DNA from: a virus | Taxonomy: Duplodnaviria > Heunggongvirae > Uroviricota > Caudoviricetes | Direction: 5' to 3' (one strand) | Length of the DNA stretch: 5,495 nucleotides | Virus record (IMG/VR): IMGVR_UViG_2657245015_000016 | Coordinates: 1 to 5,495 of that record | Shown here: piece by piece, positions 2,848-5,495 of the stretch | Layout of the letters: the number at the start of each line of letters is the position of its first letter | How positions within the stretch are numbered: position 1 is the first letter of the stretch | Position numbers and translations under genes: made by a program | Notes under the pieces: generated by a model | What the model was told of the DNA's origin: nothing | The model's input: only the letters and a program-made list of their open reading frames with translations | Database searches by the model: none

Positions 2848-2923
2848 GGCCCTTTAGCTCAGTGGTGAGAGCGAGCGACTCATAATCGCCAGGTCGCTGG
2901 TTCAAATCCAGCAAGGGCCACCA
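2848..2923 (+). tRNA. ileZ: tRNA-Ile2 (anticodon CAU, lysidine-type, reads AUA); ileX/ileZ-like
   Basis: Hand-folded cloverleaf: acceptor GGCCCTT/AAGGGCC, D-stem GCTC/GAGC, anticodon loop CTCATAA, T-arm GCTGG-TTCAAAT-CCAGC, encoded CCA at 2921-2923. It is near-identical in pattern to E. coli ileX from memory. The CAU anticodon alone cannot exclude tRNA-Met. Confidence 0.85.
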
Positions 2924-2930
2924 TCACATA

Positions 2931-3007
2931 CCGCCATTAGCTCATCGGGATAGAGCGCCAGCCTTCGAAGCTGGCTGCGCGGGGTTCAAGTCCCCGATGG
3001 CGGTCCA
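2931..3007 (+). tRNA. argN: tRNA-Arg (anticodon UCG as read from the fold)
   Basis: Acceptor CCGCCAT/ATGGCGG (7 bp), D-stem GCTC/GAGC, anticodon stem CCAGC/GCTGG with loop CTTCGAA (U33, anticodon TCG, A37), T-arm CGGGG-TTCAAGT-CCCCG, encoded CCA at 3005-3007. It starts 8 nt after the preceding tRNA. Confidence 0.85.
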
Positions 3008-3020
3008 TTATCTGCATCAT

Positions 3021-3097
3021 GCGTTGTTAGCTCAGCCGGACAGAGCAATTGCCTTCTAAGCAATCGGTCACTGGTTCGAATCCAGTACAACGCGCCA
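3021..3097 (+). tRNA. argO: tRNA-Arg (anticodon UCU, reads AGA/AGG rare codons)
   Basis: Acceptor GCGTTGT/ACAACGC, D-stem GCTC/GAGC, anticodon stem ATTGC/GCAAT with loop CTTCTAA (anticodon TCT), T-arm ACTGG-TTCGAAT-CCAGT, discriminator G, CCA at 3095-3097. Confidence 0.88.
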
Positions 3098-3111: not shown

Positions 3112-3138
3112 GGCTCGCTTTTGCGGGCCTTTTTTTTT
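3112..3138 (+). terminator. Intrinsic terminator of the tRNA operon
   Basis: GGCTCGC (3112-3118) pairs with GCGGGCC (3123-3129), with one G-U pair, around loop TTTT, followed by nine T (3130-3138). Confidence 0.75.
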
Positions 3139-3144
3139 AAATGT

Positions 3145-3359
3145 CTCACAATTCAGACGGTTGACTGTTGTCTGGTTTGCGGGGAGTTTGTTAAAAGAAA
3201 CTGGCATGGTGAATCCCCCTGTGCGGAGGGGCAATCAGCGAGTAGGTATATGGGATAATCGCGGATTCAGGTGCTGGTACTGAATTCACCGGGAGGCACC
3301 CGGCACCATGCAATGGCACATAGCGCCACTCTCCAGCCCCTCTCCGGAGGGGCTTTTCT
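3145..3359 (+). ncRNA. Candidate structured small RNA, copy A of a tandem paralog pair occupying the stx slot
   Basis: Starts at the conserved CTCACAATTCAG block just after the tRNA terminator. Perfectly conserved blocks are shared with copy B: TTTGTTAAAA, CATGGTGAATCCCCCTG, GCGGAGGGGC, CACCGGGAGGCACCCGGCACCATG. It ends in a terminator (7-bp stem GCCCCTC/GAGGGGC at 3336-3353, then TTTTCT). There is no conserved reading frame between copies. No convincing sigma70 promoter was found, so the 5' end is uncertain. Confidence 0.35.
3336..3359 (+). terminator. Intrinsic terminator closing repeat copy A
   Basis: GCCCCTC (3336-3342), loop TCCG, GAGGGGC (3347-3353), then TTTTCT. Confidence 0.6.
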
Positions 3360-3548
3360 GTGCCGGATACATCACAGTTTCTGGAACCTTAGGTACTACA
3401 GTATCAGTCAGGGTGCTATATTTTCAGATGTGATGAAAGCCTGTCAGCAGGCAGGGCGTATCGGAAATGACCCAGTAGAGAAAACGTTGACTCAGATACC
3501 GGTGCTGAGTTACCGGGAAACCGGCATCACATGACCGCTATCCTTCCA

Positions 3549-3575
3549 GGCCCATCCGCTCCGGTGGGCCTTTTT
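3549..3575 (+). terminator. Intrinsic terminator preceding repeat copy B
   Basis: GGCCCATC (3549-3556) pairs with CGGTGGGCC (3562-3570), including one G-U pair, around a 6-nt loop, followed by TTTTT (3571-3575). Confidence 0.6.
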
Positions 3576-3612
3576 ACTGCAGAAAACAGGTTCCCCGTTA
3601 AATGCTATGTTG

Positions 3613-3846
3613 CTCACAATTCAGTAAGTTGACAGTTGCCTGTCAGACTGGGCATTTGTTAAAAAAATTTCGCATGGTGAATCCCCCTGAGCGGAGGGGC
3701 GACTGGTGACGGTATAATCTCTGATTATCAAAACGAGAATGACGCGGGTTTAGTGGCACCGGGCTGAACTCACCGGGAGGCACCCGGCACCATGTGCATG
3801 ATGATACAGATACGCGGCTTTAGCCCCTCTCCGGAGGGGTTTTCTT
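3613..3846 (+). ncRNA. Candidate structured small RNA, copy B of the tandem paralog pair
   Basis: Same conserved block order as copy A, beginning CTCACAATTCAG at 3613 and ending with terminator CCCCTC/GAGGGG (3824-3839) plus TTTTCTT. The internal 5-bp hairpin CCCCT-N6-AGGGG and the CCGGG-AGGCA-CCCGG hairpin are preserved in both copies. Confidence 0.35.
3824..3846 (+). terminator. Intrinsic terminator closing repeat copy B
   Basis: CCCCTC (3824-3829), loop TCCG, GAGGGG (3834-3839), then TTTTCTT (3840-3846). Confidence 0.6.
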
Positions 3847-3852
3847 GTGGGC

Positions 3853-3880
3853 AAAAAAAGCCCGCGCTGGGAGACGCGGG
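3853..3880 (-). terminator. Candidate minus-strand (or bidirectional) intrinsic terminator
   Basis: On the plus strand, AAAAAAA is followed by GCCCGCG-CTGGGAGA-CGCGGGC (perfect 7-bp stem). Read on the minus strand this is a hairpin followed by a T-run. Confidence 0.35.
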
Positions 3881-3949
3881 CGGCAAGGAATAAACAATAA
3901 AACGTGAAGTAATATTTCAGCTGGCGAATAATACCCCATAGTAATCACT

Positions 3950-3972
3950 CTGCGCAACTGCGCGGTCTTTTT
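3950..3972 (+). terminator. Weak candidate intrinsic terminator upstream of the esterase gene
   Basis: CTGCGC (3950-3955) pairs with GCGCGG (3960-3965) around loop AACT, followed by TCTTTTT. Confidence 0.3.
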
Positions 3973-4074
3973 CGAATTGCGGGCTGTCGTCTCTCTTCTG
4001 CCATTGTCCTGTAACTTCCGGACTTCAGCCCGCTCCTTATTTTACTCACAATATTATCCCGGCCGGGAGGATTC

Positions 4075-5322
4075 ATGGCATTTAAACACTATGACGTGGT
4101 CAGGGCGGTATCGCCGTCAGACCTTGCGAAACGACTGACACAAAAACTGAAGGAGGGCTGGCAGCCGTTTGGTAGTCCGGTGGCCATAACCCCTTATACC
4201 CTGATGCAGGCGATTGCAGCAGAAGGTGATGTGGTGGTCAGTGGTGCAACTGAGCCGGATTGGTACTACGTCATCGTACTGGCCGGGCAGTCCAATGCCA
4301 TGGCTTACGGTGAAGGGCTTCCGCTGCCGGATTCATACGATGCGCCCCATCCGCGCATTAAGCAACTGGCCCGTCGTAACACAGTGACTCCCGGTGGTGA
4401 AGTATGCGTATTTAACGACATCATTCCTGCTGACCATTGTCTGCATGATGTTCAGGATATGAGTACGATTAACCATCCCCGGGCTGACCTGAGCAAAGGG
4501 CAGTACGGCTGTGTCGGACAGGGCTTACATATTGCCAAAAAACTGCTTCCGTATATCCCTAATAACGCGGGGATCCTGCTGGTACCATGCTGTCGTGGTG
4601 GTTCGGCATTCACCCAGGGCACGGAGGGGACATTCAGCGAGTCCACGGGGGCCAGTCAGGATTCGGCTCGCTGGGGAGTGGGTAAGCCGTTATATCAGGA
4701 TCTGCTTTTCCGCACGAAGGCAGCATTGCAGAAAAACCCGAAAAACGTTTTGCTGGCGATATGCTGGATGCAGGGGGAATTCGATATGACGAATGCCAGT
4801 TACGCCCAGCAGCCAGCAGCATTTCTTGCAATGGTACAGCAGTTCCGTGCTGACCTTGCCGGGCTGGCGGCGCAGTGTCACGGTGGAAGTCCGGCATCAG
4901 TCCCCTGGATTTGTGGCGACACGACATACGCGTGGAAACAAGAACACGGTACGCAATATGAAGTGGTATATGGTGCATATAAAGGTAAAGAATCCCAGCA
5001 GATTTATTTTGTTCCCTTTATGACCGATGGTAGCGGAGTTAATACACCGACAAACAACCCGTCAGAAGATCCTGATATTGCCGGGTCTGGTTATTACGGT
5101 TCGGCATCCCGAACGAACAAAAACTGGGTATCATCAAATCGCCCGACGCATTTCAGCTCATGGGCGCGTCGTGGCATTATTCCCGATCGTATGGCAACTG
5201 CTATTCTGAACGTAGCCGGTCGCACCTTAGCCTTCATTAGTGGTAAGGCACCGGAAATCAAACCCTCGCCCGGCGGCGACACTCCATCGGGGCCGTCTGA
5301 TGGCCAATCAGAAAGGCGATGA
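4075..5322 (+). CDS. nanS-p: NanS-p-like prophage sialate O-acetylesterase (N-terminal DUF1737-like region plus SGNH/SASA esterase domain with a GQSN motif); possibly C-terminally truncated
   Basis: 415-aa ORF with a strong GGGAGGA ribosome-binding site 4 nt before ATG 4075. The N-terminus MAFKHYDVVRAVSPSDLAKRLTQKLKEGWQPFGSPVAITPY matches my recollection of the DUF1737 start of the gene found downstream of stxAB in 933W-like phages. VIVLAGQSNAMAYGEG carries the GQSN catalytic-serine motif of NanS-type 9-O-acetyl esterases. Its position downstream of the ileZ-argN-argO tRNAs matches lambdoid late-region synteny. Confidence 0.75.
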   Translation: MAFKHYDVVRAVSPSDLAKRLTQKLKEGWQPFGSPVAITPYTLMQAIAAEGDVVVSGATEPDWYYVIVLAGQSNAMAYGEGLPLPDSYDAPHPRIKQLARRNTVTPGGEVCVFNDIIPADHCLHDVQDMSTINHPRADLSKGQYGCVGQGLHIAKKLLPYIPNNAGILLVPCCRGGSAFTQGTEGTFSESTGASQDSARWGVGKPLYQDLLFRTKAALQKNPKNVLLAICWMQGEFDMTNASYAQQPAAFLAMVQQFRADLAGLAAQCHGGSPASVPWICGDTTYAWKQEHGTQYEVVYGAYKGKESQQIYFVPFMTDGSGVNTPTNNPSEDPDIAGSGYYGSASRTNKNWVSSNRPTHFSSWARRGIIPDRMATAILNVAGRTLAFISGKAPEIKPSPGGDTPSGPSDGQSERR

Positions 5323-5385
5323 CACCCACGCCCTGGGCCAGCCAATACGCGGTCATGATAAATCCTTATCAGGTATGGAAAAGCA

Positions 5386-5418
5386 AACGGCGCTTCACAT
5401 TATGAAACGCCGTTTTTT
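5386..5418. terminator. Hairpin terminator, probably bidirectional, between convergent genes
   Basis: AACGGCG (5386-5392) pairs with CGCCGTT (5408-5414), with an inner TTCA/TGAA helix. It is flanked by an A-rich stretch upstream and TTTTTT downstream (5413-5418). Confidence 0.45.
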
Positions 5419-5495
5419 ATTAACAACTCATTTCGACTTTATAGCGTTACGCCGCTTTTGAAGATCGCCAGTTCGCGGAAGTCGTTACGCTCGTT

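Follow-up and report, generated by a model that had tools for sequence, protein, structure and literature searches.

The 8-mer CTCACAAT occurs exactly three times in the window, that is, the entire 5,495-nucleotide stretch of caudoviricete DNA analysed here, each time on the plus strand (3145-3152, 3613-3620 and 4045-4052), and the third copy lies 22-23 nt upstream of the start codon of a nanS-p gene (ATG at 4075). The question raised by this locus is whether the three copies represent a common signal at the edges of three successive units, nanS-p included, be it a start or processing site or a binding site for a regulator, as the initial annotation suggested, or whether they recur for other reasons. 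The features that bear on the answer are collected in Table 1.

Table 1. Coordinates of the tRNA, sRNA, promoter and dyad features between the tRNA cluster and the esterase gene
Feature	Position	Strand	Details
tRNA cluster Ile2(CAT)/Arg/Arg	2848-3097
Intrinsic terminator of the tRNA cluster	3112-3140	+	stem 3112-3129, then T-run overlapping the left end of dyad 1
CRP-like 22-mer no. 1, TTTTTTTAAATGTCTCACAATT	3132-3153		contains CTCACAAT 3145-3152, TCACA 3146-3150; centre 3142.5; 8/10 core matches
Putative promoter P1, unit 1	3161-3197	+	positional homology with consensus promoters of other STnc100/PasD subfamilies; -35 TTGTCT 3168-3173; 18-nt spacer; TG 3189-3190; -10 TAAAAG 3192-3197
sRNA unit 1, STnc100	3204-3359	+	start inferred; terminator 3335-3354 plus U-run
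Degenerate dyad, middle unit	3358-3379		ATCACAGT 3371-3378, TCACA 3372-3376; 5.7 bits, rank 7
Middle decayed STnc100-like unit	3414-3577	+	extended -10 TGcTATATT 3414-3422; start ~3428-3430; terminator 3548-3571
CRP-like 22-mer no. 2, AAATGCTATGTTGCTCACAATT	3600-3621		contains CTCACAAT 3613-3620; centre 3610.5
Putative promoter P1, unit 2	3629-3665	+	-35 TTGCCT 3636-3641; TG 3657-3658; -10 TAAAAA 3660-3665
sRNA unit 2, STnc100 type found after stx2B in 933W (EcOnc27/sRNA103)	3672-3846	+	terminator 3822-3841
Convergent sRNA (EcOnc08/21/42; E2348C_1409.E2348C_1408.IGR)	3853-4046	-	terminator 3881->3860; seed CCUUGCC 3888->3882
Third CTCACAAT	4045-4052	+	nanS-p 5' UTR, opposite promoter or 5' edge of minus-strand sRNA; outside any sRNA cassette
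nanS-p-type esterase gene (DUF1737 + SASA, Pfam)	4075-5322	+	3'-truncated; adjoins chromosomal ygjV/uxaA

Copies of the 8-mer and tandem sRNA cassettes

If the copies are assumed to be independent, their number appears striking (0.16 copies expected, and none of 200 shuffles with three or more), but an estimate of this kind overstates the recurrence. Copies 1 and 2 form the initial 8 bases of an 88-nt direct repeat with 80% identity and are both followed, 62 nt downstream, by TGGTGAATCCCCC, so that they count as a single event, and the exact repetition of CTCACAAT at 3145 and 3613 is due to gene duplication. The heptamer TTAAATG does precede both copies, as described in the initial annotation, but not at a constant spacing, being removed by 1 nt from the first copy (3137-3143) and by 8 nt from the second (3598-3604).

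The duplicated genes, units 1 and 2, are tandem paralogues within the Hfq-binding prophage sRNA family STnc100 (EcOnc05/EcOnc27/sRNA103), which is related to PasD. The Rfam covariance model RF02076, with a gathering score of 47 bits, matches unit 1 with 136.3 bits (3175-3365) and unit 2 with 161 bits (3643-3852); a unit between them scores 30.1 bits (3404-3577), below the gathering score and hence outside the family by this measure. All three units end in rho-independent terminators. Within the aligned region, unit 1 is near-identical to EcOnc05 of Sakai Sp4, the probe for which matches at 3233-3267, and the Sakai RNA is known to be expressed and Hfq-bound (Hfq-CRAC peak, Northern); unit 2 is 84.5% identical to the 933W copy. 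Downstream of the tRNA cluster, the array can be read as one family of prophage sRNA genes represented by three tandem cassettes. In each of these, the terminator of the preceding unit would be followed first by a short upstream element, in which CTCACAAT is the portion nearest the promoter, then by an extended -10 promoter and a structured sRNA of ~155-175 nt, and finally by a terminator. Column-for-column alignment of the three units identifies the true third member of the series as ATCACAGT (3371-3378), at the head of the degenerate unit. A search of related prophages shows that CTCACAAT is conserved at the corresponding position in Stx and non-Stx prophages alike, including directly after stx2B in 933W.

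The copy in the nanS-p leader is a different case. Its identity with sites 1 and 2 stops at the ends of the 8-mer, the flanks being unrelated, and neither a promoter nor an sRNA cassette follows it on the plus strand. Units 1 and 2 have 50 8-mers in common, of which 14 are found again elsewhere in the window (8.3 in shuffles) and six on the plus strand (4.3 in shuffles); since the shuffles give a probability of 0.97 that at least one of the 50 recurs on the plus strand, the third copy has no statistical weight of its own. Among 24 distinct nanS-p upstream variants, five carry CTCACAAT, always within one conserved hairpin block, and other alleles have CTCACAAC, TTCAGTAC or TTTAATAC in its place. 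A further resemblance of 8 nt, between GGGAUAAU in unit 1 (3251-3258) and AUUAUCCC in the leader (4053-4060), is likewise at chance level and was discarded. A signal common to three successive units is therefore not borne out, given the different flanks and geometry of the third site, its chance-level occurrence and its variation in homologues: the threefold motif is most likely a duplication plus a coincidence, with sites 1 and 2 very probably representing a single paralogous position to which site 3 is unrelated.

The third copy faces the convergent minus-strand sRNA, the 5' end of which maps near 4032-4046 when the EPEC coordinates are transferred by alignment, behind a promoter match ATGCCA-17-GATAAT (4081->4053). 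The EcOnc08/21/42 probe matches 3928-3962 with a few mismatches, the window differing from Sp4 there, and the folding z-score is -2.2. An assignment to AgvB or AsxR was rejected for both strands, the respective covariance models (Rfam RF02702 and RF02703) yielding no match at E up to 1.

The upstream dyad and the putative sRNA promoters

The conserved core at the head of the cassettes is TCACAATT, and a TG..A 6 bases upstream of it completes a 22-bp dyad, TG..A-N6-TCACA, which is centred at -61.5 from the inferred, PasD2-based start in unit 1, unit 2 and 933W. Compared to TGTGA-N6-TCACA, both dyads in the window have a perfect right half-site and three of five matches in the left one; identity to the CRP consensus is 16/22 for 3600-3621, the best in the window, and 11/22 for the other 22-mer. 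On an ad hoc position weight matrix, assembled from a set of 20 classical CRP sites and not from a database, dyads 1 and 2 score 15.6 and 15.4 bits, ranking 1 and 2 among 5474 window positions, with the next-best site at 7.4 bits and the training sites themselves at 7.9-19.0; the 933W copy reaches 18.7 bits. The third CTCACAAT scores 1.4 bits on this matrix, compared to 15.5, and most likely lies outside the CRP-like sRNA system, as a chance identity. Of the functions initially proposed for the motif, a regulator binding site is the best supported one for the two repeat units and the decayed middle unit but does not extend to the nanS-p leader.

The pattern of conservation points in the same direction. 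In the three-unit alignment, TCACA..TT is invariant and the rest of the middle-unit promoter region has diverged; across variants, the central six bases change (AATGCC, TGTTGC, TCTGTG, GTCATC, AATAAC, CGTTAC), and the left T-G-x-x-A and the right TCACA stay. In every variant, however, the left half-site lacks the position-7 G contacted by CRP (TGTTA, TGTAA, TGCTA and, in unit 1, TTTTA). Because most of the variants are closely related, part of the upstream conservation reflects shared ancestry.

The sRNA starts are probably G3204 in unit 1 and G3672 in unit 2, as judged from the RNA-seq 5' end of PasD2 and a family-wide promoter alignment, with the proviso that the promoter subtype of PasD2, from which the start is transferred, differs from that of the E. 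coli-type units. In EPEC, the PasD2 5' end (RNA-seq coverage, 741157) is the G of GCATGGTGAATCC, and the homologous position lies 59 nt further downstream than the motif, which places CTCACAAT 52-59 bp upstream of the two inferred starts. Subfamilies from other genera have near-consensus promoters at equal distance from TGGTGAATCC (TTGACG-17-TAAATT, TTGAAA-17-TGtTAAATT and TTGACT-18-TAAAAA). Units of the E. coli type keep the -35 hexamer and TGtTAAAA around a spacer that is 18 nt long in 54 of 58 variants and hypervariable in sequence, with at least eight unrelated versions. The extended -10 elements TGtTAAAAG (unit 1) and TGtTAAAAA (unit 2) possess the TG and the A at -11 and have no T at -7, and are not listed by the promoter scan; TGcTATATT of the middle unit is a full match to the sigma-70 extended -10 pattern. 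The core promoters of units 1 and 2 accordingly appear to be weak, with TTGTCT or TTGCCT at -35 and TAAAAG or TAAAAA at -10. An additional perfect TTGAC(T/A) precedes the assumed -35 by 7 bp in both units (TTGACT, 3161-3166; TTGACA, 3629-3634).

We tentatively interpret the upstream element as a class I CRP-type activator site of a weak extended -10 promoter, an interpretation that we hold with slightly less than even confidence. TCACA(A)TT would be the functional core, and the dyad would recruit RNA polymerase to the weak -35/-10 promoter in the manner of class I CRP-cAMP sites. Literature searches on subjects other than CRP and cAMP turned up no account of these sRNAs being controlled by cAMP or glucose, and CRP is not mentioned in one paper that was checked. 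To the explanation as a whole, namely, duplicated sRNA cassettes, a candidate CRP-type site and a coincidental third copy, we assign a probability of about 0.5.

Other regulators were considered for the element and rejected. The unit 2 sequence GCTCACAATT (3612-3621) is identical to one half of the symmetric lac operator (AATTGTGAGC / GCTCACAATT); the half is perfect, but the second one is missing (1/10 matches upstream), so there is no site for a LacI-family dimer. By inspection, spacing or half-sites also disagree with lambda CII (TTGC-N6-TTGC), sigma-54 (GG-N10-GC), ArcA, TyrR, OmpR, Cra, Fis and IHF.

Alternative explanations

The main competing explanation, to which we give perhaps one chance in four, is that the STnc100-type sRNAs have a longer isoform beginning at CTCACAAT. 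Its 5' end would be either a second transcription start or an endonuclease cut in read-through from the tRNA operon, stx or pR', and the conserved segment between TCACAATTCAG and GCATGG would be an RNA leader and possibly a 5' seed; if the longer form exists, the sRNA 5' end, and hence the seed, is mis-annotated. TCACAAT is the exact point where homology with Stx phages starts, the Rfam STnc100 model reaches 29 nt upstream of GCAUGG, a cut between CA and AUU would be near the RNase E preference, and a probe of Tree et al. (2014, PMC4104026) was directed against this upstream region in the copy after stx1B. The distance from motif to terminator, 215 nt in unit 1 and 229 nt in unit 2, is closer than that from the inferred start (156 and 171-175 nt) to the published Northern sizes of ~222 nt (EcOnc05) and ~235/247 nt (EcOnc27), which are compatible with RNAs that begin close to the motif. 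The sizes would also result from a start 29 nt upstream together with transcription through to the following hairpin, so they leave the 5' end unfixed, and the same size table overestimates PasD/EcOnc13 (187 vs 172 nt). Moreover, the conserved hexamers and the hypervariable spacer of fixed length between motif and inferred start constitute a promoter signature, and neither in the window nor in 933W is the motif preceded by a -35/-10 pair: with CACAAT or TTAAAT as the -10 hexamer, there is no -35, and either the A at -11 or the T at -7 is missing. The inferred start precedes the beginning of the EcOnc05 Hfq peak by 33 nt; in the data of Tree et al. (PMC4104026), Hfq-CRAC peaks are confined to the 3' parts of the sRNAs. 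Nor does the leader covary with the sRNA body. Pairing of leader AAUUCAG with body CUGAAUU was rejected on the ground that changes in the body hairpin are compensated within that hairpin (UUCAG/CUGAA, UUUAG/CUGAA, UUCGG/CCGAA) and the leader is constant. An antiterminator RNA like HK022 put, considered for the GGUGAAUCCCCC...CACCGGGAGGCACCCGGCACC core, was also dismissed: among the matches listed by blastn against the phage collection, there are only Stx and lambdoid phages of Escherichia and Shigella, and HK022 is not one of them.

It is rather improbable that the motif lacks any function and simply forms the conserved beginning of a cassette that spread and was duplicated recently, ancestry and chance together accounting for the three copies. 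Such a scenario would suit the chance-level third copy and the finding that, of 69 distinct upstream sequences of the E. coli type, most are near-identical, but it leaves unexplained why TCACA is kept in the strongly diverged middle unit amid changed promoter bases and why both half-sites persist with the six bases between them altered, and two 15-bit CRP-like sites (on the ad hoc matrix) would be unlikely to fall exactly at -61.5 by accident.

Use at the RNA level, alongside or instead of the DNA level, appears decidedly improbable. Here, CUCACAA would head the long STnc100 isoform and sit in the nanS-p leader, and, with the same small likelihood, both sites would be bound by RNAs bearing UUGUGAGU, namely, the PasD seed and possibly the 5' end of the minus-strand sRNA if this RNA starts at ~4050; PasD and the esterase gene would then be joined with the sRNA dyad in one antisense or sponge circuit. 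We consider it very improbable that CUCACAA is specifically the PasD RIL-seq target motif and the nanS-p 5' UTR (ACUCACAA, 4044-4051) a PasD-type target or sponge, and give just as little credence to transcripts through sites 1 and 2 playing this role for the PasD seed 5'-UUGUGAGU. The MEME motifs of PasD1/PasD2 targets do include CUCACA, CUCACAGG and CUCACAAG, the CCTTGTGAGTTCTGG of PasD2 can form 8 contiguous pairs with 4044-4051, and the leader site is 23-31 nt upstream of the start codon. However, complementarity of 8 nt is near chance, the motif varies among nanS-p alleles, UGUGAG is absent from every sRNA in the window, and PasD is reported mainly in EPEC and EHEC, whereas the closest full-length relatives of the window region are mostly ExPEC-type strains. 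We rejected PasD targeting of the nanS-p leader on the EPEC RIL-seq data, in which the identical 5' UTR of E2348C_1409 yields no chimeras.

Finally, the 8-mers at 3613 and 4045 might have arisen as direct repeats when the sRNA pair was inserted, as a target-site duplication or a recombination junction. xTCACAAT indeed flanks the plus/minus sRNA dyad in the window, Sakai Sp4 and 933W, yet this origin is extremely improbable. No empty site, in which a single CTCACAAT would link the upstream gene directly to ATTATCCCGG, was found, and target-site duplication was rejected on this ground; the same hairpin block precedes the right-hand copy in 112 of 112 loci, with the sRNA at most 520 nt away in 111 of them; the right copy mutates freely; and the left copy also heads units that have no minus-strand partner (3145, 3371).

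Significance and comparison with known systems

The STnc100-type sRNAs are multicopy, abundant Hfq partners in prophages of EHEC, EPEC and ExPEC, and one copy directly follows stx2B; variants immediately upstream of this stx2B-adjacent copy are reported predictors of HUS (PMC12711010). A genuine CRP site at -61.5 would imply catabolite control of these sRNAs and would suggest that the HUS-linked variants affect promoter strength and not the RNA. The TCACAATT element itself is not mentioned in the papers that we read.

The upstream region resembles the class I CRP promoter lac P1 in the 22-bp dyad with a perfect TCACA half, the centre at -61.5 from the inferred start, the apparently weak core promoter and the A/T-rich dyad flanks (AAATG....TCACAATT). 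Class I sites are centred near -61.5, -71.5, -82.5 or -92.5. Unlike class I CRP sites, the dyads in the window have no G at position 7 of the left half, and the promoters, in contrast to class I CRP-dependent ones, are of the extended -10 type. With the PasD target motif CUCACA (Pearl Mizrahi et al. 2021, PMC8550237), the locus shares the same six bases and, for the third copy, a position in a 5' UTR near the ribosome binding site; it differs from that system in that the window contains no PasD-type seed and the nanS-p UTR has no recorded interaction.

In slot and plus/minus layout, the sRNA pair corresponds to the convergent lambdoid dyads AsxR/EcOnc27 and AgvB/EcOnc06 (Tree et al. 2014, PMC4104026), but the minus-strand partner is of the EcOnc08/21/42 type, with the seed CCUUGCC, and is neither AsxR nor AgvB. 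The units occupy the same place as in the STnc100/EcOnc05/EcOnc06/EcOnc27/sRNA103 systems, that of a late-region 'moron' with Q/tRNAs (or stx) on one side and the sialate esterase gene on the other, and, like the family members described previously (Tree et al. 2014, PMC4104026; Zhu et al. 2026, bioRxiv 10.64898/2026.05.13.724894), they have a convergent sRNA partner. Where pasA and pasD are present in several copies, these are reported to be widely separated in the genome and not duplicated in tandem (Zhu et al. 2026, bioRxiv 10.64898/2026.05.13.724894); unlike those copies, the window contains a tandem array of two full copies and one decayed copy.

The repeated sRNA cassette and its prophage context

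The motif CTCACAAT occurs in the window exactly at 3145, 3613 and 4045 (sites 1, 2 and 3), always on the plus strand, as the initial annotation reported, but the pattern proposed there, a signal at the 5′ edge of three successive units including nanS-p, breaks down: sites 1 and 2 are one paralogous position in a known sRNA cassette, whereas site 3 differs in flanks and geometry. Sites 1 and 2 are the opening eight bases of an 88-nt direct repeat (80% identical), each 62 nt before TGGTGAATCCCCC. The shuffle expectation for CTCACAAT, 0.16, treats the copies as independent, which they are not. Units 1 and 2 share 50 8-mers, 14 of which recur elsewhere in the window (8.3 in shuffles), and the probability in shuffles that at least one of the 50 recurs on the plus strand is 0.97, so that site 3 carries no statistical weight.

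The units match the Rfam family STnc100 (RF02076) at 3175-3365 (unit 1, 136 bits) and 3643-3852 (unit 2, 161 bits), with a weak third match, 30 bits against a gathering score of 47, at 3404-3577, and an intrinsic terminator follows each of the three. STnc100 sRNAs bind Hfq and occur in prophages in multiple copies, 11 of them annotated in EDL933 (PMC5331693); the family is tied by structure to the EPEC sRNAs PasD1 and PasD2 (bioRxiv 10.64898/2026.05.13.724894). Across the region that aligns, unit 1 is nearly identical to EcOnc05 (Tree et al. 2014, PMC4104026), the copy carried by Sakai prophage Sp4, and the Northern probe of that study matches 3233-3267; unit 2 is of the type located after stx2B in 933W and Sp5, that is, EcOnc27 or sRNA103. 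Compared with Sakai Sp4, the window contains an extra insertion comprising unit 2 and a decayed middle unit, the latter absent from the initial list of repeats. In the three-unit alignment, ATCACAGT (3371-3378) of the middle unit occupies the CTCACAAT column, making the real series 3145, 3371, 3613 rather than 3145, 3613, 4045; T-C-A-C-A and the next TT are invariant across the three units, and the remaining middle-unit promoter region has diverged.

Features of the window
Feature	Position	Strand	Remarks
Q antiterminator domain fused to CbeA antitoxin domain	553-1173
Lambda-like pR'/tR' segment	between the 553-1173 ORF and the methylase		sequence inspection
DNA methylase	1749-2798
tRNA-Ile2(CAT)/Arg/Arg cluster	2848-3097
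Intergenic stretch, ~950 bp	between tRNA cluster and nanS-p		holds the motif copies
Unit 1 promoter	-35 TTGTCT 3168-3173; extended -10 TGtTAAAAG 3189-3197		inferred start G3204, positional homology
Decayed STnc100-like unit	3358-3577		Rfam 30 bits, below threshold
Middle-unit promoter	strong extended -10 TGcTATATT 3414-3422		no clear -35; inferred start about 3428-3430, positional homology
Middle-unit terminator	3548-3571
Unit 2 promoter	-35 TTGCCT 3636-3641; extended -10 TGtTAAAAA 3657-3665		inferred start G3672, positional homology
Convergent sRNA	3853-4046	-	homology to EcOnc08/21/42 and EPEC IGR sRNA
Convergent sRNA terminator	3881->3860	-
Convergent sRNA seed CCUUGCC	3888->3882	-	complementary to published target motif GGCAAGG/GGCAGGG
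nanS-p-type esterase gene, 3'-truncated	4075-5322		DUF1737 + SASA
Chromosomal genes ygjV/uxaA	right end, after nanS-p

The window is a late-region remnant of a lambdoid prophage. Its CbeA-Q ORF has a CbeA (YeeU) antitoxin domain at residues 18-108, followed by a complete Q antiterminator domain at 111-198, and lies downstream of a DUF987 (YeeT-like) gene (169-390); the arrangement resembles a junction formed by deletion or recombination between a CP4-type island and the prophage. Directly 5′ of the tRNA cluster, at 2810-2838, is a promoter-like TTGAAG-17-TATTAT, so the tRNAs may not depend on pR' for their transcription; the first tRNA is Met(CAT) according to ARAGORN, and its Sakai homologue is tRNA-Ile (ileZ) in RefSeq. 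The remnant stops within nanS-p (415 aa, versus about 616-634 aa in the Sakai and E2348/69 homologues), which abuts ygjV/uxaA (5295-5495). This junction is absent from 5426 complete E. coli genomes, in which no place covers at least 80% of 5200-5495.

The third copy and the nanS-p leader

The identity of site 3 with the other copies ends at the 8-mer. In 112 loci, site 3 always belongs to one conserved block consisting of a long hairpin (3978-4033), TTATTTTA and the motif; among nanS-p alleles, the motif is replaced by CTCACAAC, TTCAGTAC, TTTAATAC and others, and is kept in 5 of the 24 distinct variants. The hairpin, GCGGGCTG...CAGCCCGC, just 5′ of site 3, is part of both the nanS-p leader and a minus-strand sRNA, and in another nanS-p allele gives way to a perfect 12-bp stem, GGGCTGTAGTCC...GGACTACAGCCC.

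The segment 3853-4074 is the convergent partner in an sRNA "dyad" of the type described by Tree et al. 2014. The convergent sRNA, ~271 nt in that study versus 182 nt by EPEC RNA-seq, matches EHEC EcOnc08/21/42 and the EPEC RIL-seq sRNA E2348C_1409.E2348C_1408.IGR; AsxR and AgvB were rejected as its identity. A minus-strand promoter match, ATGCCA-17-GATAAT (4081->4053; predicted start near 4046), is conserved in 933W too, a TAAAAT at 4044->4039 would put the start near 4032, and the 5′ end estimated for the homologous sRNA from EPEC RNA-seq corresponds to about 4034. By these matches and the 5′ estimate, site 3 falls within the nanS-p leader and, on the opposite strand, within either the promoter or the initial bases of the convergent sRNA, a geometry that has nothing in common with the one at sites 1 and 2. 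This copy before nanS-p is best regarded as a chance occurrence.

Could this copy act in RNA pairing? The RIL-seq target motif of PasD1/PasD2, CUCACA(AG/GG), is complementary to the PasD seed UUGUGAGU (PMC8550237), with which ACUCACAA at 4044-4051 would pair over 8 nt. However, this seed is present in none of the window's sRNAs, EPEC RIL-seq yielded 0 chimeras for the identical E2348C_1409 leader, and the pairing site is not conserved, all of which makes PasD-type pairing at the leader highly improbable; a broader RNA-level reading of CUCACAA is only slightly less so. Separately, GGGAUAAU (3251-3258, in the unit 1 sRNA) is complementary to AUUAUCCC (4053-4060, in the nanS-p leader right after site 3), an eight-nt match near chance level.

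Promoters and predicted sRNA starts

Upstream sequences were taken 5′ of the invariant TGGTGAATCCCCC...GCGGAGGGGC at 120 viral-contig and 35 genome loci from Enterobacteriaceae. They comprise several unrelated types, each with a recognisable promoter at equal distance (TTGACG-17-TAAATT; TTGAAA-17-TGtTAAATT; TTGACT-18-TAAAAA; GATAAT, TAAAAT and others) and a predicted start 1-4 nt before UGGUGAAUCC. For PasD2, RNA-seq coverage and Northern size give an estimated 5′ end at NC_011601 741157, precisely on the G of GCATGGTGAATCC. In the E. coli type, to which the units of the window belong, 54 of 58 variants keep the spacer at 18 nt, yet the spacer has been replaced in sequence at least 8 times, a pattern typical of promoters and not of RNA leaders. 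With the starts so placed, CTCACAAT would lie at -59 to -52. The E. coli-type core promoter is weak: its -35 is poor and its -10 has no T at -7. An imperfect 7-bp tandem makes up the -35 region (GTTGACT GTTGTCT, 3160-3173; GTTGACA GTTGCCT in unit 2, 3628-3641), and the perfect, strongly conserved TTGAC(T/A) in it lies 7 bp farther upstream than a -35 serving the -10 would.

Two HUS-predictive variants after stx2B, +90 (T<->C) and +103 (T deletion) (PMC12711010), map, by our own count that may be off by one, within or beside two parts of the EcOnc27 promoter, the TG of the extended -10 and the spacer between the -10 and the start (933W segment 940-960 corresponds to window 3655-3672; GCATGG begins at +104). 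These variants may alter promoter strength, not the sRNA sequence.

Longer sRNA species might instead begin near the motif, in which case the initial notion of a start or processing signal would be partly right. The Northern sizes of Tree et al. 2014 fit such species: ~222 nt for EcOnc05 (156 nt from inferred start to terminator versus 215 nt from the motif) and ~235/247 nt for EcOnc27 (171 versus 229 nt); the same study gives ~177 nt for EcOnc06 and ~187 nt for EcOnc13, a PasD homologue, for which the inferred start and the terminator in EPEC give 172 nt. These sizes, however, also fit a start 29 nt upstream, at the Rfam model edge, with read-through to the next hairpin; promoter scans of the window and 933W detected no promoter-like element 5′ of the motif in either context, and the EcOnc05 Hfq peak starts 33 nt past the inferred start. 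We consider such isoforms unlikely, at roughly one chance in four. The "EcOnc13" Northern probe TTTTCTAACACATCTATTATCAGACCGGCAACAAC (Tree et al. 2014 supplement) does not match the PasD homologue that Sakai Sp3 carries at the coordinates of EcOnc13; its match is to the promoter-spacer region of the STnc100 copy that follows stx1B. Either its label is wrong or the region upstream of the stx1B copy is transcribed.

A candidate CRP-type activator site

The recurrence in related prophages that the initial annotation suggested looking for is found at the position of sites 1 and 2, where TCACAATTCAG is 90-100% conserved in a set of distinct E. coli-type upstream sequences that grew from 41 to 69. 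Stx-phage homology begins at TCACAAT, immediately 3′ of stx2B, stx1B or a tRNA terminator. Eleven bases farther upstream, T-G-x-x-A is kept in contexts whose intervening six bases differ; the left half-site takes the forms TGTTA, TGTAA, TGCTA, TGCCA and TGATA (TTTTA in unit 1) and often follows AAA/AAT. The resulting dyad, AAaTGt.A-N6-TCACAaTT, is the CRP consensus, AAATGTGA-N6-TCACATTT, except for the G at position 7.

The 22-mer at 3600-3621 agrees with the consensus at 16 of 22 positions, more than any other in the window (next best, 13); the top core score, 8/10, is reached by both dyads and by 4122-4143, the dyads being first and second by 22-mer match. With a CRP weight matrix rebuilt from 20 classical sites, a lead and not a database result, the two dyads rank first and second of 5474, at 15.6 and 15.4 bits (next best 7.4; training sites 7.9-19.0), compared with 18.7 for the 933W copy, 5.7 for the middle unit and 1.4 for the third CTCACAAT. 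The dyad is missing from the subfamilies with consensus promoters.

The dyad, its centre at -61.5 from the inferred start in unit 1, unit 2 and 933W, and the weak core promoter suggest a candidate class I CRP-type activator site for the sRNA promoter, of which the motif at sites 1 and 2 is probably the key half. Although this specific site is, to our knowledge, undescribed, the sRNA family and the CRP-type site are both of known kinds, and the -61.5 spacing is the geometry of lac P1.
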